10,097 bases of DNA, taken from IMG/VR virus record IMGVR_UViG_2693429676_000011. One strand, written 5' to 3'. A program made the translations under genes and the position numbers. Source of the DNA: a virus (Duplodnaviria; Heunggongvirae; Uroviricota; Caudoviricetes). Shown piece by piece: positions 824 through 9,784 of the stretch. Positions within the stretch are counted from its first letter, which is position 1; each line of letters begins with the position of its first letter. The notes beneath the pieces are model-generated. The model did no database searches. It was not told the origin of the DNA and saw nothing but the letters and a program-made list of their open reading frames with translations.

Positions 824-2677
824 TTATGATGATGCCGGTGCATTTATCTCCAGCACCAGACTTTCTATCTCAACGCCATACGCTGCATTTTTGGTAATAT
901 CCGTCAGCGTCAGCGCATTCAGCCCCAGTGTCAGACTGTCTTTTATGACCTGGAATGCCGGGCCAGCCACTCCATTCAGTTTCGGAGTAACCGTGGCACT
1001 GCCGGCGGTGAACACCAGCTCCAGCGTCAGCCAGTCGTTACTGTAATTCCCGAACTCGCCCAACTTTGTGTTTCCTGCTTTCTTGTGATGCATCAGATTC
1101 AGTTTGCCGTCTGTGGTCTGGGTGAAGAACGACATCAGGAACGGGTTACCAGTCCCGGTCATCGCCACGACGTCAGGTAACGCTACATCGGTATACAGAT
1201 AAATTCCCAGACCGAACTGGTTGTTGGTCAGTGCGCCTGACAGTCGAAACTTACAGCTCAGTCTGCCACCCCGTGTCAGCAGGGAGACTGCGTCATCCAC
1301 CGGGCGCGTCAGGGACCAGGCTTTATTGCTCTGCTTGGTGATCTTAAATACACCATCTGACAACTGAACTCCGCCATTCTTAATGCTCCAGCCCTGCGCA
1401 GCAGCGTCTCCGGCTGTCGGCAACAGGGAGATTGTGCGTATGGATGCATCTTCAGACGGCCCCGATGGCGTGTCGCCGCCGGGCGAGGGTTTGATTTCCG
1501 GTGCCTTACCACTAATGAAGGCTAAGGTGCGACCGGCTACGTTCAGAATAGCAGTTGCCATACGATCGGGAATAATGCCACGACGCGCCCATGAGCTGAA
1601 ATGCGTCGGGCGATTTGATGATACCCAGTTTTTGTTCGTTCGGGATGCCGAACCGTAATAACCAGACCCGGCAATATCAGGATCTTCTGACGGGTTGTTT
1701 GTCGGTGTATTAACTCCGCTACCATCGGTCATAAAGGGAACAAAATAAATCTGCTGGGATTCTTTACCTTTATATGCACCATATACCACTTCATATTGCG
1801 TACCGTGTTCTTGTTTCCACGCGTATGTCGTGTCGCCACAAATCCAGGGGACTGATGCCGGACTTCCACCGTGACACTGCGCCGCCAGCCCGGCAAGGTC
1901 AGCACGGAACTGCTGTACCATTGCAAGAAATGCTGCTGGCTGCTGGGCGTAACTGGCATTCGTCATATCGAATTCCCCCTGCATCCAGCATATCGCCAGC
2001 AAAACGTTTTTCGGGTTTTTCTGCAATGCTGCCTTCGTGCGGAAAAGCAGATCCTGATATAACGGCTTACCCACTCCCCAGCGAGCCGAATCCTGACTGG
2101 CCCCCGTGGACTCGCTGAATGTCCCCTCCGTGCCCTGGGTGAATGCCGAACCACCACAACAGCATGGTACCAGCAGGATCCCCGCATTATTAGGGATATA
2201 CGGAAGCAGTTTTTTGGCAATATGTAAGCCCTGTCCGACACAGCCGTACTGCCCTTTGCTCAGGTCAGCCCGGGGATGGTTAATCGTACTCATATCCTGA
2301 ACATCATGCAGACAATGGTCAGCAGGAATGATGTCGTTAAATACGCATACTTCACCACCGGGAGTCACTGTGTTACGACGGGCCAGTTGCTTAATGCGCG
2401 GATGGGGCGCATCGTATGAATCCGGAAGCGGAAGACCTTCACCGTAAGCCATGGCATTGGATTGCCCGGCCAGTACGATGACGTAGTACCACTCCGGCTC
2501 AGTTGCACCACTGACGACCACATCACCTTCTGCTGCAATCGCCTGCATCAGGGTATAAGGGGTTATGGCCACCGGACTACCAAACGGCTGCCAGCCCTCC
2601 TTCAGTTTTTGTGTCAGTCGTTTCGCAAGGTCTGACGGCGATGCCGCCCTGACCACGTCATAGTGTTTAAATGCCAT
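824..2677 (-). CDS. nanS-p: Prophage-encoded sialate O-acetylesterase (NanS-p family, SASA/SGNH hydrolase), 617 aa
   Basis: Long ORF with the SASA active-site block VIVLAGQSNAMAYGEG and an N-terminus MAFKHYDVVRAASPSDLAKRLTQKLKEGWQPFGSPVAITP that matches my recollection of NanS-p proteins encoded downstream of stx in EHEC lambdoid prophages. GGAGGA precedes the ATG. It occupies the canonical position between the tRNA/stx site and the lysis genes. Confidence 0.9.
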   Translation of the reverse strand: MAFKHYDVVRAASPSDLAKRLTQKLKEGWQPFGSPVAITPYTLMQAIAAEGDVVVSGATEPEWYYVIVLAGQSNAMAYGEGLPLPDSYDAPHPRIKQLARRNTVTPGGEVCVFNDIIPADHCLHDVQDMSTINHPRADLSKGQYGCVGQGLHIAKKLLPYIPNNAGILLVPCCCGGSAFTQGTEGTFSESTGASQDSARWGVGKPLYQDLLFRTKAALQKNPKNVLLAICWMQGEFDMTNASYAQQPAAFLAMVQQFRADLAGLAAQCHGGSPASVPWICGDTTYAWKQEHGTQYEVVYGAYKGKESQQIYFVPFMTDGSGVNTPTNNPSEDPDIAGSGYYGSASRTNKNWVSSNRPTHFSSWARRGIIPDRMATAILNVAGRTLAFISGKAPEIKPSPGGDTPSGPSEDASIRTISLLPTAGDAAAQGWSIKNGGVQLSDGVFKITKQSNKAWSLTRPVDDAVSLLTRGGRLSCKFRLSGALTNNQFGLGIYLYTDVALPDVVAMTGTGNPFLMSFFTQTTDGKLNLMHHKKAGNTKLGEFGNYSNDWLTLELVFTAGSATVTPKLNGVAGPAFQVIKDSLTLGLNALTLTDITKNAAYGVEIESLVLEINAPASS

Positions 2678-2899: not shown

Positions 2900-2908
2900 G
2901 CCCACAAG

Positions 2909-2928
2909 AAAACCCCTCCGGAGAGGGG
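2909..2928 (-). terminator. Minus-strand intrinsic terminator ending repeat module U1
   Basis: Stem cccctc / gagggg with loop cgga (2913..2928); on the minus strand the hairpin is followed by UUUUCUUGU. Confidence 0.45.
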
Positions 2929-3176
2929 CTAAAGCCGCGTATCTGTATCATCATGCACATGGTGCCGGGTGCCTCCCGGTGAGTTCAGCCCGGTGCCACT
3001 AAACCCGCGTCATTCTCGTTTTGATAATCAGAGATTATACCGTCACCAGTCGCCCCTCCGCTCAGGGGGATTCACCATGCGAAATTTTTTTAACAAATGC
3101 CCAGTCTGACAGGCAACTGTCAACTTACTGAATTGTGAGCAACATAGCATTTAACGGGGAACCTGTTTTCTGCAGT

Positions 3177-3203: not shown

Positions 3204-3394
3204 TGGAAGGATAGCGGTCATGTGATGCCGGTTTCCCGGTAACTCAGCACCGGTATCTGAGTCAACGTTTTCTCTACTGGGTCATTTCCGATACGCCCTG
3301 CCTGCTGACAGGCTTTCATCACATCTGAAAATATAGCACCCTGACTGATACTGTAGTACCTAAGGTTCCAGAAACTGTGATGTATCCGGCACAG

Positions 3395-3416
3395 AAAAGC
3401 CCCTCCGGAGAGGGCT
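3395..3416 (-). terminator. Minus-strand intrinsic terminator ending repeat module U2
   Basis: Stem cccctc / gaggg(c) with loop cgga; on the minus strand followed by UUUUCUGUG. Confidence 0.45.
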
Positions 3417-3612
3417 GGAGAGTGGCGCTATGTGCCATTGCATGATGCCGGGTGCCTCCCGGTGAATTCAGTACCAGCACCTGAATCCGCGATTATCCCA
3501 TATACCTACTCGCTGATTGCCCCTCCGCACAGGGGGATTCACCATGCCAGTTTCTTTTAACAAACTCCCCGCAAAACAGACAACTGTCAACCGTCTGAAT
3601 TGTGAGACATTT

Positions 3613-3652: not shown

Positions 3653-3729
3653 TGGCGCGTTGTACTGGATTCGAACCAGTGACCGATTGCTTAGAAGGCA
3701 ATTGCTCTGTCCGGCTGAGCTAACAACGC
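3653..3729 (-). tRNA. tRNA-Arg, anticodon UCU (reads AGA)
   Basis: Manual cloverleaf on the reverse complement: GCGTTGT TA GCTC AGCCGGACA GAGC A ATTGC CTTCTAA GCAAT CGGTC ACTGG TTCGAAT CCAGT ACAACGC G CCA. Perfect 7-bp acceptor stem, 5-bp anticodon and T stems, TTCGAAT T-loop, encoded CCA; 77 nt. Confidence 0.9.
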
Positions 3730-3742
3730 ATGATGCAGATAA

Positions 3743-3819
3743 TGGACCGCCATCGGGGACTTGAACCCCGCGCAGCCAGCTTCGAAGGCTGGCGCTCTTT
3801 CCTGATGAGCTAATGGCGG
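3743..3819 (-). tRNA. tRNA-Arg, anticodon UCG (reads CGA), atypical C1-G72 and D-loop
   Basis: Reverse complement folds as CCGCCAT TA GCTC ATCAGGAAA GAGC G CCAGC CTTCGAA GCTGG CTGCG CGGGG TTCAAGT CCCCG ATGGCGG T CCA. All stems are perfect and CCA is encoded; 77 nt. First base C and the unusual D-loop lower confidence slightly. Confidence 0.8.
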
Positions 3820-3826
3820 TATGTGA

Positions 3827-3902
3827 TGGTGGCCCTTGCTGGATTTGAACCAGCGACCTGGCGATTATGAGTCGCTCGCTCTCACCACTGAGCTAAAGGG
3901 CC
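3827..3902 (-). tRNA. tRNA with CAU anticodon, ileX/ileZ-like (Ile2 lysidine type or Met)
   Basis: Reverse complement GGCCCTT TA GCTC AGTGGTGA GAGC G AGCGA CTCATAA TCGCC AGGTC GCTGG TTCAAAT CCAGC AAGGGCC A CCA; 76 nt. Near-identical in architecture to my recollection of E. coli ileX. Lambdoid Stx phages carry an ileZ-argN-argO trio at this position. Confidence 0.85.
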
Positions 3903-5573: not shown

Positions 5574-6395
5574 TTACCTAGTTACCTTTTTTAACTGCCG
5601 CTCAGCCCATGCTTCTTCAATATCAAACCGGGTCACCAGCGCATCATAAAATTTCTTAACTGTTTTTTCCCATGACGCGCGTGTTATCTGGTTTGTCACC
5701 TCGCATATAGCATTAAATGCCTCCGTTGATGGTAGTCTTTCATAGCCACGACCACCACAACGCTGGCAGTCTCTGATAACAGGCATACCACGTTTTACCG
5801 ACTCTTCACGATGAATGGCGACACCACGCCCACGGCAATCCTTACAGGCGGTGGAAACCTCACCCTTTCCGCCACACTCCGGACAGGCAACTTTTACCAC
5901 CTCCCTGACTTTTTTCCATTCTTCCCAGTAAGACGGATACACACCTTTCGTACACTTTGCCCATACCGGCGGCTTACCATCCGGATACTGGATCTTGTTT
6001 GTAAAAACCTCGCTTTCAATAAATTTTTTTCCGTGACAGCAGGGGCACTGTTTTTTGCTCGCCGCGCTACGGGCATAATCTTCAAACGCATACGAAGCCA
6101 TAATACGCATCACTGCCGGTTTTATTTCTGCCGGGAGTTTTCTTAACGCCGCCACGCGATCACACCGACTGAGTGCATATTCTGTCAGCAATTCTGTTGC
6201 CCGCTCTCTGTCATTCATACTAATGCCCATTTTCCCAAGGAACGCAGAAACCCCCATCTCAGCCCGATTCTGTGTCATGCCCTGCGCGGCCATCACATCA
6301 GTGATACTCAGCGCATCTTTCGACGTTGAGGCCGATGCATCAGTCAGGCCGGGGGATTTTGGGGAGTAGTATTTCGGTAAATCTTCCAGTTTCAT
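5574..6395 (-). CDS. Late antiterminator Q (QuuQ/Q82-like, with DnaJ-type CxxCxGxG zinc motifs), 273 aa
   Basis: Lies immediately upstream of the pR'-like promoter and downstream of rusA sequence. Cys-rich motifs CPECGGKG, CKDCRGRG, CQRCGGRG. Start ATG overlaps the TGA of a 37-codon rusA 3' remnant (ATGA). Family call is from memory plus position, not a search. Confidence 0.75.
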   Translation of the reverse strand: MKLEDLPKYYSPKSPGLTDASASTSKDALSITDVMAAQGMTQNRAEMGVSAFLGKMGISMNDRERATELLTEYALSRCDRVAALRKLPAEIKPAVMRIMASYAFEDYARSAASKKQCPCCHGKKFIESEVFTNKIQYPDGKPPVWAKCTKGVYPSYWEEWKKVREVVKVACPECGGKGEVSTACKDCRGRGVAIHREESVKRGMPVIRDCQRCGGRGYERLPSTEAFNAICEVTNQITRASWEKTVKKFYDALVTRFDIEEAWAERQLKKVTR

Positions 6396-6562
6396 TTTTT
6401 GACCTGCCCTTCAAGCATTATGGGATAAATCTTCACCCCCAGACGTCCACCAGATACTGGCTGAGCACGAACGATATTGATTTCATCAAACTGCTCATCG
6501 TCCATTAACGGCGCTTATCCGGTGGTTCTGCAATAATTTTTATTGCCAACCTTCCGGACAGG
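5890..6562 (-). repeat. Tandem duplication, copy A (Q 5' part, rusA 3' remnant, junction)
   Basis: 5890..6507 aligns with 6563..7182 at an offset of 675 bp. 53 bp at 6510..6562 match 7247..7299. The 11-bp tccggacaggc occurs at 5879..5889, 6552..6562 and 7289..7299. Confidence 0.85.
6392..6505 (-). pseudogene. Duplicated 3' remnant of rusA (37 codons, MDDEQFDEINIVRAQPVSGGRLGVKIYPIMLEGQVKK) upstream of full-length Q
   Basis: Block 6396..6507 is identical to 7071..7182, the 3' end of intact rusA. Retains an in-frame ATG and the ATGA overlap with the Q start. Confidence 0.6.
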
Positions 6563-7070
6563 CAACTTTTACCACCTCCCTGACTTTTTTCCATTCTTCC
6601 CAGTAAGACGGATACACACCTTTCGTACACTTTGCCCATACCGGCGGCTTACCATCCGGATACTGGACCTTGTTTGTAAAAACTACGCTTTCAATAAATT
6701 TTTCCCCATAGCAACAAGGGCACTGCTTTTTACTCGCTGCGCTGCGGGCATAATCCTCAAAAGCGTACGAAGCCATAATGCGCATCACTACCGGTTTTAT
6801 TTCTGCCGGAAGTTTTCTCAACGCCGCCACACGATCGCACCGACTGAGTGCATAATCTGCCAGTAATTCTGTTGCCCGCGCCCTGTCATTCATACTAATG
6901 CCCATTTTCCCAAGGAACGCAGAAACCCCCATCTCAGCCCGATTCTGTGTCATGCCCTGCGCGGCCATCACATCAGTGATACTCAGCGCATCTTTCGACG
7001 TTGAGGCCGATGCATCAGTCAGGCCGGGGGATTTTGGGGAGTAGTATTTCGGTAAATCTTCCAGTTTCAT
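6540..7070 (-). pseudogene. Truncated paralog of Q (Q'), 176 codons: the Q N-terminal region (through KVACPE) plus 3 junction codons
   Basis: Matches full Q through ...KVREVVKVACPE, then reads GWQ-stop across the duplication junction. Eight amino-acid differences from Q cluster in the middle. Start ATG overlaps the rusA TGA (ATGA). Confidence 0.7.
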
Positions 7071-7447: not shown

Positions 7448-8506
7448 TTATGCTTTCCACTTCAGAACACCCGAATTTCTCGCGTGCATTAAAAAACGAA
7501 TCAGCAACAACAGCTGACTGCCGTGTTTCTCTTCAAAATCTTTTACTCCGGCATGTAGTTCGTTACGGCATTTACGGCATAACGGAATAACAAACAAATC
7601 ATCAGCCTTTGTTCCCATCCCTCCCAGTCCATGACCAATGATGTGATGCGGATCATCTGCCTGATTGCCACACGTCATGCATTTCTGCGTTTTTACCCAG
7701 CGCGTGTATACAGGCATCTCTTCCCGTTGTGATTTCTGGCGCTGGAGATACTGAGCCGGTGACTCCGGATCAACGGCAATGCTGACCACCGTCTTTTCCT
7801 GTGGTGGGTTCTGTTGCTGGTGGACGTGAGGCAGTAACGCAATATTTTTTGTGCGCTGCTTCAGTATGCTGGTGGCTGTCTGCTCTCCCGGTATGATGTC
7901 GCTTTCACTGTACACAGAGCGAATTTTTTCCGCACGCAACCCCAGCGAACGACGTAATACCGCTTCCGGTAGCGCGTCCGCCACCTGATTGCGGACCGCC
8001 CACCAGGATAATTCAGCCAGAGATAATTCACGCTCCTGCGTACCGCTTATTGCGTGACCGATGACGTCAATCATCCATGCTGACAGGTTTTGATGAGCAA
8101 GTTGCTCGAGTGATTCGGATGTCTGGTCACGCAGCTGGTTGTCGCAGTGCCAGCACAACACCATTGCGCCGGTACCATAACGGTGAATGACGGTTTCGCT
8201 GTGATGATAATCGCCGTGTGGCCACTGGCAGGATTTAATATGGCGCAACAGCCAGTCAGACAATGCACCAGCACCACCAGCAGCACGAATCACCCGTGCG
8301 TTACTGAAAAACGGCAGCAATGTTTTGTCTTCCACCAGCGGCTGGCGAGCGGCAGGAACGACCCCGGACGGCAGATTACGCATGCTTTTTGGTTCCGGCT
8401 CCACCAGTATTCTGCCGTTATGGAATGCTGACATTGATTCACGGCCTGGCTTAACGATAACCAGGCCGAGTTCCGGTACCAGAACAGGTCGAAGTAATAC
8501 CCGCAC
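7448..8506 (-). CDS. DUF968/YdfU-like phage protein with a C-terminal HNH-like zinc motif, 352 aa
   Basis: C-terminal CMTCGNQADDPHHIIGHGLGG...CRKCRNELH. Size and position (between the rem-like ORF and Q) match ydfU of Qin-type prophages as I recall it. Stop abuts the rusA start. Confidence 0.7.
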   Translation of the reverse strand: MRVLLRPVLVPELGLVIVKPGRESMSAFHNGRILVEPEPKSMRNLPSGVVPAARQPLVEDKTLLPFFSNARVIRAAGGAGALSDWLLRHIKSCQWPHGDYHHSETVIHRYGTGAMVLCWHCDNQLRDQTSESLEQLAHQNLSAWMIDVIGHAISGTQERELSLAELSWWAVRNQVADALPEAVLRRSLGLRAEKIRSVYSESDIIPGEQTATSILKQRTKNIALLPHVHQQQNPPQEKTVVSIAVDPESPAQYLQRQKSQREEMPVYTRWVKTQKCMTCGNQADDPHHIIGHGLGGMGTKADDLFVIPLCRKCRNELHAGVKDFEEKHGSQLLLLIRFLMHARNSGVLKWKA

Positions 8507-8507
8507 A

Positions 8508-8786
8508 TTACCTCCAGATCCGTTGCTGGAATGTGCGGGACGGACGCGTTGGCCGTTCGGAGTAAGGGAGCCTGACGGAGATTATCCAGTGACGGTAGTC
8601 GAGGCTAAGGGCTTTTTTAACCTCGCATCCGCGCCTGCGGTAACACTGAATGAGCCATTCGGCCTGTTCTTCAGTGCATGGGGGATGCTGGTACCAATCA
8701 GATTTAAATGCGTGAGAGCGCCGCCCGTGCCTGCTGGCAAAGACGGCTGAATTATCAGAATTGTGTAGTCTGGAATTTTGCGCCAT
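8508..8786 (-). CDS. Hypothetical small protein, 92 aa; start uncertain
   Basis: ORF ends 1 nt before the next gene start. Arg/His/Trp-rich composition makes it less convincing and no family was recognised. Confidence 0.3.
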   Translation of the reverse strand: MAQNSRLHNSDNSAVFASRHGRRSHAFKSDWYQHPPCTEEQAEWLIQCYRRRGCEVKKALSLDYRHWIISVRLPYSERPTRPSRTFQQRIWR

Positions 8787-8852
8787 CGGCTTTCTCCGGT
8801 GGCACAGTGTTACTCAACAGGGGTTCAGCCCTGCGCTGAATTGTAGATGAAT

Positions 8853-9113
8853 TCACTCATCTTCAAAAGCAGAAAAACCAGCCTTAATCCCAGCTTCTTT
8901 CAGAGACGGCAACGATGTGACAAATTCATTTGCACGCGAAATAAAACCATCCGTCACAAGCCCATCCACAAAATGAATTAACGCAGCTCCACTCTTCCTT
9001 TGTTGAGACTGTAAACATTTAATACGGCAGTGGCTGACAATAGCGCCATTCTCAACGCGCACAGTATAGAGGCCATCTTCACTAAAAATTTCACGTAATT
9101 CTTCGATTTTCAT
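8853..9113 (-). CDS. Hypothetical small phage protein, 86 aa (possibly Rem-like by position)
   Basis: GGAAGGA Shine-Dalgarno about 8 nt upstream of the ATG at 9113; the six-frame track starts one codon earlier at a TTG. Position between hok and the ydfU-like gene parallels rem in Qin. Confidence 0.5.
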   Translation of the reverse strand: MKIEELREIFSEDGLYTVRVENGAIVSHCRIKCLQSQQRKSGAALIHFVDGLVTDGFISRANEFVTSLPSLKEAGIKAGFSAFEDE

Positions 9114-9235
9114 CAACAGAATCCTTCCAGATAAATAGCACTCCCCTGTTCGGGGTCCATCCCTCTTCTCCCTGCGCGCTACTTAAGTATTTTTGATTCT
9201 ATTCCGGCACCATCTAAAACTTCAAACGCGTTGAA

Positions 9236-9264
9236 AATAAAAACAAAAACCCGCCGAAGCGGGT
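9236..9264 (-). terminator. Intrinsic terminator of the hok transcript
   Basis: Minus-strand RNA ACCCGC-UUCG-GCGGGU followed by UUUUUGUUUUUAUUUU, about 70 nt after the hok stop. Confidence 0.7.
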
Positions 9265-9333
9265 TAAGTGTGGGTGCATTGAGGATGCCTGACCCATCAG
9301 AGGTGGCGAGGGATTTCTCCCCCGCCTGGTCTC

Positions 9334-9489
9334 TTACTCCTCAGGTTCGTAAGCTGTGAAGACAGCGACCTCCGTCTGGCCGGTTCGAATTCGTACCTCG
9401 CAGAGGTCTTTCCTCGTTACCAGTGCCGTCACAATGACGGTTAAACAGATGACGATCAGGGCGATTAACATCGCCTTTTGCTGCTTCAT
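9334..9489 (-). CDS. hokD: Hok-family type I toxin (HokD/RelF-like), 51 aa
   Basis: Translation MKQQKAMLIALIVICLTVIVTALVTRKDLCEVRIRTGQTEVAVFTAYEPEE matches my recollection of E. coli HokD/RelF. An upstream in-frame ATG at 9546 gives the 70-aa six-frame ORF and sits where mok lies in hok/sok loci. Confidence 0.9.
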   Translation of the reverse strand: MKQQKAMLIALIVICLTVIVTALVTRKDLCEVRIRTGQTEVAVFTAYEPEE

Positions 9490-9537
9490 AGCCTGCTTCT
9501 CCTTGCCTTTCGGCACGTAAGAGGCTAACCTAGATTT

Positions 9538-9608
9538 GCCGTTCATAGATTGAGCCTCAGATTAATGTTAAGCGTCTTGCCGGACGCGTAATGTTAACTG
9601 GGGCTTTT
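9538..9608 (+). ncRNA. Candidate Sok-like antisense RNA of the hok locus
   Basis: Plus-strand promoter-like elements: -35 TTGCCT (9503..9508), 17-nt spacer, -10 TAACCT (9526..9531). They parallel the R1 sok promoter as I recall it (TTGCGC, 17 nt, TATCCT). The predicted transcript is antisense to the mok start region and ends in a U-rich stretch (cuuuucucuaucugccuuuu). Ends are approximate. Confidence 0.4.
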
Positions 9609-9665
9609 CTCTATCTGCCTTTTGGTGTTCATGCCTGAGACAGATAGCCTCAAGCACCCGCTGCA

Positions 9666-9693
9666 ATTCTACTTAACTCTCCTTTTCCCGCAA
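9666..9693 (-). promoter_or_regulatory. Putative hok mRNA promoter
   Basis: Minus strand -35 TTGCGG (rc of 9688..9693), 16-nt spacer, -10 TAGAAT (rc of 9666..9671). The downstream sequence GCUUGAGGCUAUCUGUCUCA resembles the 5' end of R1 hok mRNA (GCUUGAGGCUUUCUGCCUCA) as I recall it. Confidence 0.5.
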
Positions 9694-9700
9694 ACCGTTT

Positions 9701-9784
9701 TTATCCCCAGCGGCAAATCGAATACACCACCAGCGCCACCGCCATCGCAATTCCTACCGTTGTTAATGCTTCAGGCCAGGTCAT
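9701..9784 (-). CDS. Candidate 27-aa hydrophobic membrane peptide [27 protein letters not shown]
   Basis: ATG overlaps the TGA of the upstream 103-aa ORF (ATGA). One predicted transmembrane segment. No Shine-Dalgarno was assessed, so the ORF is speculative. Confidence 0.3.

Follow-up and report, generated by a model that had tools for sequence, protein, structure and literature searches.

A complete hok/mok/sok type I toxin-antitoxin locus was identified at positions 9694..9240 on the minus strand of the window, a term used here for the whole stretch of 10,097 nucleotides that was analysed (IMG/VR virus record IMGVR_UViG_2693429676_000011). All elements of the locus were found to be intact, with no IS element, frameshift or stop among them, and their coordinates are collected in Table 1 together with those of features in the surrounding region. 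The toxin gene, hok, encodes a peptide of 51 amino acids (MKQQKAMLIALIVICLTVIVTALVTRKDLCEVRIRTGQTEVAVFTAYEPEE) that has 100% identity to HokD (RelF) of Escherichia coli K-12, which is the identity that had been proposed for it in an earlier note made from the sequence of this DNA alone. The peptide was found to be a member of the Hok/Gef toxin family, matching Pfam HOK_GEF (PF01848) with an E value of 3e-23 and 81.6 bits against a cutoff of 22, and to match PHROG 251 (E=7.7e-33), which bears the name "MokW-like host killing". Judged by these sequence matches, the assignment of the protein family is unambiguous. A second ATG, 57 nt upstream of that of hok and in frame with it, was found at 9546, where it is preceded by a Shine-Dalgarno sequence of its own and occupies the position of mok. 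The Shine-Dalgarno sequence AAGGAG before the internal hok ATG is strong and was found to be invariant among all family members compared.

Table 1. Coordinates of the elements of the hok/mok/sok locus and of features in the surrounding region of the window
Feature	Position	Strand	Details
hok/mok mRNA promoter	9694..9666	-	-35 TTTGCG at 9694..9689, 17-nt spacer, -10 TAGAAT at 9671..9666
Predicted full-length hok mRNA	9659..9240	-	Approximately 420 nt; 5' end GGGUGCUUGAGG, extending to the U-run behind the terminator
5' box (tac-like)	9659..9648	-	GGGUGCUUGAGG; pairs with the 3' fold-back box
mok-position ORF	9546..9334	-	70 codons, in frame with hok; GAGG Shine-Dalgarno at 9558..9555
hok toxin gene	9489..9334	-	51 aa; AAGGAG Shine-Dalgarno at 9504..9499
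3' fold-back-inhibition (fbi-like) box	9284..9272	-	CCUCAAUGCACCC; pairs with the 5' box; retained in K-12 hokD
Intrinsic terminator hairpin	9265..9248	-	AACCCGCTTCGGCGGGTT; T-run after the hairpin
Sok promoter	9503..9531	+	-35 TTGCCT at 9503-9508, 17-nt spacer, -10 TAACCT at 9526-9531; convergent with hok
Predicted Sok antisense RNA	9538..9614	+	71 nt to 9608 (933W sokW annotation) or 77 nt to 9614 (K-12 sokC analogy)
27-aa hydrophobic ORF	9701..9784	-	Unannotated, conserved; its ATG overlaps the stop of an upstream 103-aa ORF (ATGA)
Antiterminator-Q-family ORF	6540..7070	-	176 aa
Antiterminator-Q-family ORF	5574..6395	-	273 aa
Three tRNA genes	3653..3902	-	Met-CAT (may be Ile2-type), Arg-TCG, Arg-TCT; upstream of the STnc100 copies
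STnc100 sRNA (Rfam)	3387..3576	-	124 bits
STnc100 sRNA (Rfam)	2900..3109	-	161 bits
NanS-p-like sialate esterase	824..2677	-	Downstream of the STnc100 copies

The -10 element of the hok promoter was found to align position for position with those of K-12 hokC, K-12 hokB and an R1-type hok, and the promoter as a whole is identical in phage 933W; the hok mRNA would have G9659 as its +1. A generic sigma-70 scanner called neither the hok promoter nor the Sok promoter, and both therefore rest on homology. Its only call was a site downstream of the terminator, which probably serves rem.

The leader of the predicted transcript (9659..9484, minus strand) was found to match Rfam RF01794 over the full length of the model, with 112.4 bits against a gathering score of 59 (E=1.5e-25), which identifies it as the conserved and structured leader of hok mRNAs that forms the Sok-target region, and it contains the CAGATAGAGAAAAGCCCC block at 9616..9599. 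RF01794, although named 'sok antitoxin', matches the hok-encoding strand, and its consensus runs from the 5' end of hok mRNA to the hok AUG; the model is therefore in the hok-sense orientation and confirms the leader, not the Sok strand. A four-way alignment of the window with K-12 hokC, K-12 hokB and an R1-type plasmid hok showed conserved blocks in the order of the -10 TAGAAT, the 5' end GGGUGCUUGAGGCU, CAGAUAGAGAAAAGCCCC, the mok Shine-Dalgarno sequence with its AUG, UAGCCUCUUAC and, directly before the hok AUG, CAAGGAGAAG.

A long-range lock in which the 5' end of the transcript is folded back onto its 3' end is a defining trait of hok mRNAs. The minimum-free-energy fold of the 420-nt mRNA was found to pair nt 1-12 with nt 376-388, that is, the tac-like 5' box with the fbi-like 3' box (9659..9648 with 9284..9272). 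Relatives belonging to Escherichia, Kluyvera, Photorhabdus, Pantoea and Erwinia share this pairing, its 3' side standing at a constant 45-56 nt past the hok stop, and compensatory changes were identified in it at two positions (U-A to C-G and G-C to A-U), with wobble intermediates present. These elements of sequence and structure, together with their conservation, were observed directly in the present analysis.

The four-way alignment also covered the Tyr47 codon of Hok (UAC, 9349..9351 on the minus strand, with the A at 9350), which lies within a UACG context (GCUUACGAA) that is kept in hokC and in R1-type hok, with hokB hard-coding UGC at that position. The equivalent position in hokC, hokD and hokE is reportedly recoded from Tyr to Cys through A-to-I editing by TadA (bioRxiv 10.1101/2025.08.07.668861). 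No obvious tRNA-like hairpin was found around A9350 in the local fold.

Coordinates for Sok were transferred from the annotated sokW of phage 933W and sokC of K-12. The inferred start at 9538 lies 7 nt past the -10 of the Sok promoter and coincides with the annotated 5' ends of both of these RNAs. The predicted Sok begins with an unpaired 5' tail that is complementary to mok codons 1-3, continues into a long hairpin and finishes in a U-rich stretch, and its fold has an energy of -32.9 kcal/mol (z = -5.5), with none of 200 shuffled sequences folding as well. It aligns without gaps to sokW of 933W and by position to sokC of K-12, which points to a cis-antisense sok gene. In the earlier note, the region upstream of the toxin had been described as carrying the full hok-type regulatory architecture, including a convergent Sok-like promoter, and a Sok-like RNA of ~65 nt had been expected. 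This architecture is borne out by the RF01794 match, by the 5'-3' fold and by the homology of the promoter and of Sok to hokC and 933W, with the TTGCCT/TAACCT promoter standing at a position homologous to those of the sokW and sokC promoters; the antisense gene is likewise upheld by homology, but its predicted size of 71-77 nt replaces the one first suggested.

A hypervariable patch was observed at 9531..9551, which takes in mok codons 2-5 and the spacer leading up to the mok ATG and is complementary to the 5' tail and start site of Sok. Among 12 loci of the hokD/hokW type, the mean column entropy of this patch was found to be approximately 0.6-0.7 bits, compared to 0-0.1 in most nearby 10-nt windows, the leader around it being otherwise nearly invariant. 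Such variation fits a putative diversification of antisense-target specificity among co-resident copies.

Comparison of the window with the locus of Stx2 phage 933W gave 92.7% identity over 439 nt (megablast) and 94% column identity by pairwise alignment. The annotation of 933W (Plunkett 1999) places mokW (70 aa) at 58460..58672 and hokW (51 aa) at 58460..58615, in frame and with a shared stop, and the record also annotates sokW as a 71-nt antisense. The 70-aa Mok-Hok protein of the window has 89% identity to MokW of 933W. The two loci share the same promoter region and most of the leader, their Sok hairpins are identical, and both are borne by lambdoid phages with the same small 27-aa ORF before hok. 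Dissimilarities were identified in the part of mok that matches the Sok 5' tail, codons 2-5 (AACGGCAAATCT in the window and CTGAACACATGT in 933W), in the C-terminus of Hok (TAYEPEE in the window and VDYESEK in 933W), in the 3' end past the fbi box, where the terminator of the window is K-12-type, and in genome position, with the 933W locus following ea22-like genes close to the right-hand end of the linear record and that of the window in a rem-ydfU-rusA-Q region. The hokW-sokW of Sakai prophage 5 (Sp5) has been described as a working type I toxin-antitoxin system, in which HokW is toxic, localises to the inner membrane and is neutralised by sokW (Takada et al. 2021, PMC8621323). With mitomycin C, sokW of Sp5 was lost in a RecA-dependent manner, HokW appeared and phage release rose approximately 2-fold (PMC8621323).

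The hokC (gef)/mokC/sokC locus of K-12 was found to have the same architecture as the window, with a Hok that is 82% identical, conserved leader blocks, and a mokC (16751..16960) and hokC (16751..16903) that are in frame and share a stop at 16751, as their counterparts in the window do. It differs in that its 3' side is disrupted by IS186, with the fbi box removed, in that its Sok hairpin is ~17 nt shorter, and in that it is chromosomal and not prophage-borne. The hok/mok/sok (parB) of plasmid R1 shows the same order of elements, and the blocks conserved between R1-type loci and the window are GCUUGAGGCU, CAGA.AGA..GCCCC, GAGGC-AUG, UAGCCUCUUAC and CAAGGAGAAG-AUG. Its Hok is, however, far more divergent (HokW, a close relative, is 44% identical to R1 Hok), its first hairpin is longer, and it is plasmid-borne with demonstrated post-segregational killing.

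The position of the mok start was determined in 45 distinct leader-bearing relatives from species-representative genomes. The mok ATG was found at -57 and in frame with hok in 31 of the 45 loci, and it was out of frame at -58 in nine of the 45 and at -56 in a further five; the frame was seen to toggle, where examined, through 1-nt indels adjoining the hok Shine-Dalgarno sequence. Both arrangements are also present among annotated loci, with mokB/hokB of K-12 being out of frame, and mokC/hokC of K-12 and mokW/hokW of 933W being annotated in frame. An IncFII plasmid hok, the product of which is taken to be R1 Hok (a 100% match), was found to have its mok ATG at 57 nt and in frame with hok. In R1 itself, the AUG of mok lies at nt 116 and that of hok at nt 174, a separation of 58 nt that places them out of frame (PMC9841398). 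Translation of mok up to the hok start was found to matter in R1, with translation beyond that start being dispensable (PMC9841398).

The in-frame ATG of the window and the 70-aa product that it would give had been recognised in the earlier note, where they were set apart from an expected out-of-frame mok. The frame and length hold, but the view that an in-frame mok is unusual was rejected, as this state is annotated in mokW and mokC and is found in the majority of the relatives. Being the majority state in the clade, it carries no special meaning. On this comparison of sequences, the conserved trait is the position of the mok start and not the mok peptide. Although the ORF from the -57 ATG reaches the hok stop in the 31 in-frame relatives, the annotations of 933W and K-12 include proteins of 70 aa and 69 aa with all of Hok inside them, and Sok covers the start at 9546, it is unlikely that the 70-aa protein from 9546 is the sole product of the locus, with no separate mok peptide or hok initiation and with regulation acting on the toxin's own start. 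Such an arrangement sits poorly with the invariant strong AAGGAG before the internal ATG of all family members, with K-12 hokD, which has no extension, and with the presence of the 51-aa peptide among toxic controls (bioRxiv 10.1101/2025.08.07.668861). Furthermore, mok is out of frame in 14 of the 45 relatives, which means that the 19-residue extension is not conserved as a protein, and codons 2-5 are hypervariable.

Comparison to K-12 MG1655, in which the order relB-relE-hokD-rem-ydfU-ydfT is found within the cryptic prophage Qin, showed that positions 7577..9503 of the window are colinear with K-12 ydfU-rem-hokD, with 84% identity overall and near-identity over hokD and its 3' UTR. The Hok protein is the same in both, next to no differences are found in the hok Shine-Dalgarno sequence, 3' UTR, fbi box and terminator, and rem and ydfU of Qin have matching counterparts downstream of hok in the window. 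This homology ends at 9503, 14 nt upstream of the hok ATG, beyond which K-12 has the 3' end of relE and a 71-nt spacer. K-12 hokD is thus without a promoter, 5' box, mok and sok, the place of which is occupied by relB-relE and the spacer, and it is transcribed from the relBE promoter (PMC5120126). The K-12 arrangement of relB and relE directly before hokD (relBEF) is not that of the window, which was found to have the full leader where K-12 has relE. No similarity to RelB or RelE was found anywhere in the window (tblastn with K-12 RelB and RelE as queries, E<=10).

K-12 was found to keep the 3' fold-back box (CCTCAACGCACCC) without its 5' partner, and this orphan box indicates that the K-12 form descended from an intact locus. 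The lost leader was not found upstream of relB in the 5-kb region of K-12 examined, which makes the K-12 event a replacement and not a clean insertion; a simple insertion of relBE, which would have left the displaced leader upstream of relB, was rejected on this ground. The relBE-hokD of K-12 is a derived, truncated form, in which the leader, mok and sok have been replaced by a relBE cassette. Much of what had been said of this comparison in the earlier note is in agreement with these results, namely that K-12 hokD sits directly behind relBE (the shared homology starting 14 nt before the hok ATG), that relBE is missing upstream of hok in the window, where remnants of relE or relB would have spoken to the contrary, and that the window has the un-rearranged and K-12 the degenerate form. 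Its proposal that relBE is an insertion into an ancestral hok/sok locus stands as to the intact ancestor, but not as to the insertion, the leader having been replaced. Truncation of an ancestral hokD by relBE is already in print, with the ORF described as having been reduced from ~70 codons to 51 in K-12 by the integration of plasmid-acquired relBE, as summarised in PMC6379469 with citation of Ramisetty & Santhosh 2016.

A second junction of relBE with hok was observed in Kluyvera sp. CHPC 1.2972 (777-1500), where a relBE cassette of ~715 bp resembling that of K-12 joins a different hok lineage, of Citrobacter type, at a point 11 nt upstream of the gene, the product of which has 70% amino acid identity to HokD (Citrobacter youngae being used as comparison). 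The cassette has 95-96% nucleotide identity to that of K-12, with amino acid identities of 98.7% for RelB and 96.8% for RelE. The junction, which lies 14 nt upstream of hok in K-12 and 11 nt upstream in Kluyvera, is without the GGAG Shine-Dalgarno sequence in Kluyvera. The two are either independent relBE-hok fusions at almost the same spot, or derive from a single fusion, with recombination and a deletion of 3 nt as later events.

The 221-nt leader (9480..9700) was identified in 4130 of 5426 complete E. coli genomes (coverage of at least 80%), with up to 8 copies per genome (median 2) and with a copy of 100% identity in one genome. The K-12 relE-hokD junction was found in 1174 of the same 5426 genomes, and the intact form is therefore the common one, with the K-12 form being rarer. 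Enrichment of hok in prophages has been documented (bioRxiv 10.1101/2025.08.07.668861). A 96%-identical copy of the E. coli-type locus was also observed in PP818812.1, labelled Actinobacillus phage vB_Apl-pPE4 (host Actinobacillus pleuropneumoniae), and E. coli-identical sequence or hokD was observed in short contigs labelled Acinetobacter and Xanthomonas and in one labelled as a MAG. The copies labelled Actinobacillus, Acinetobacter and Xanthomonas are probably the result of contamination or mislabelling, and the likely contaminated contigs (those with Acinetobacter, Xanthomonas and MAG labels) were given no weight regarding host range.

According to a summary in bioRxiv 10.1101/2025.08.07.668861, chromosomal hokA, hokB and hokC reportedly do not mediate post-segregational killing, and an intact sequence is therefore no guarantee of an active killer module. 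The locus of the window could accordingly be a non-killing chromosomal hok relic, structurally intact but silent and passively carried by the prophage, with which the weak match of its Sok and hok promoters to the consensus would be in keeping. This is considered very improbable, given that every element was found intact with no IS element, frameshift or stop, that conservation of the leader is strong, extending to 4130 of 5426 E. coli genomes, that the close homologue hokW-sokW is active (PMC8621323) and that a HokD peptide of identical sequence was among toxic controls (bioRxiv 10.1101/2025.08.07.668861).

The genes neighbouring the locus were all found to be on the strand of hok, with the order of transcription being a PHROG 660 protein, the 27-aa ORF, hok/sok, rem, a PHROG 1212 protein, DUF968/YdfU, RusA, two Q-like antiterminators, a DNA methylase, three tRNAs, two STnc100 elements and a NanS-p-like esterase. 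The host element is a lambdoid prophage of E. coli that belongs to the Stx-phage type but has no stx, and the locus lies within its early (nin/Q-proximal) operon. The 27-aa ORF ends a few nt before the hok -35 and gave no match among PHROGs; it was also observed before hok in 933W, at 1117-1200 of the segment compared, where it is unannotated and has amino acid changes with the frame kept, and in four further related loci. Of the two tandem ORFs of the antiterminator Q family, that of 176 aa matches one Antiterm domain only and may be a truncated or alternative Q. The layout of the tRNAs, the tandem STnc100 copies and the esterase was observed to resemble the Q-tRNA-stx-nanS late region of Stx phages, with no stx genes present.

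The locus is interpreted as an intact hok/mok/sok module of the hokD/hokW type that would work according to the paradigm of R1 and hokW, a reading to which we assign a probability of about 0.9. Its transcription, processing, toxicity and trigger would be those of its homologues. From a weak promoter, a stable mRNA of ~420 nt would be produced, in which the 5' end (9659..9648) is locked to the 3' box (9284..9272), and in this locked state the mRNA would be neither translated nor bound by the antisense. Slow trimming of its 3' end would unlock the mRNA and expose the translation start of mok, across the Shine-Dalgarno sequence and start codon of which the short-lived Sok (~71-77 nt, from 9538 on the plus strand) would pair, thereby blocking mok translation. 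Translation of hok would depend on that of mok, and the duplex of Sok and mRNA would also be marked for cleavage. Loss of the element, shut-off of transcription or induction of the prophage would each end Sok synthesis, whereupon the processed mRNA would be translated, and the 51-aa Hok, possibly along with the 70-aa in-frame product, would enter the inner membrane and cause depolarisation or lysis.

Regarding its biological role, such a module could serve in maintenance of the prophage, as a lysis helper on induction, or in anti-phage defence. That its main role lies in induction-coupled help with lysis and phage release, or in abortive-infection defence, and not in prophage maintenance, is a serious possibility, held tentatively. 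The hokW-sokW system raises release of Sp5 approximately 2-fold, with sokW being lost on RecA-dependent induction (PMC8621323), and hok/sok of R1 has been reported to reduce T4 plating, as cited in PMC8621323. In each of the four annotated contexts examined, namely the window, K-12 Qin, 933W and a further E. coli prophage, hok/sok also runs in the same direction as the early-operon genes around it. However, the effect on phage release is modest and comes from a single experimental study of one homologue, and these roles and maintenance are not mutually exclusive.

As a consequence of this co-directional embedding, read-through driven by induction would run against the convergent Sok promoter, which may relate to the RecA-dependent loss of sokW. 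A rather doubtful extension of the intact-module reading joins two proposals, namely that interference by read-through at the Sok promoter is the trigger on induction and, linked to it, that the patch at 9551..9531 is a specificity code. Under the first, the lambdoid hok/sok would always be co-directional within an N-antiterminated early operon, transcription of which would meet the Sok promoter head-on and raise the dosage of hok mRNA; transcriptional interference of this kind would act as the RecA-dependent trigger through which, on induction, Sok is lost and Hok set free. Under the second, the hypervariable stretch of 10-20 nt that spans the mok start and the 5' tail of Sok could prevent cross-silencing among the 2-8 copies co-resident in a genome.

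The locus is one that is already known, being of the hokW/mokW/sokW type and the common E. coli form, and there is nothing new in it or in the evolutionary idea attached to it. Its correct label is hok/mok/sok of the hokD/hokW type, including an unannotated Sok RNA, with little significance beyond annotation. For the family, these results mean that the K-12 reference copy, relBE-hokD, is atypical and truncated, and that within this clade mok is normally in frame. The hypervariable patch at the Sok tail, the co-directional embedding in early operons and the relBE-hok fusion of Kluyvera could bear on the triggering and orthogonality of prophage hok/sok copies.
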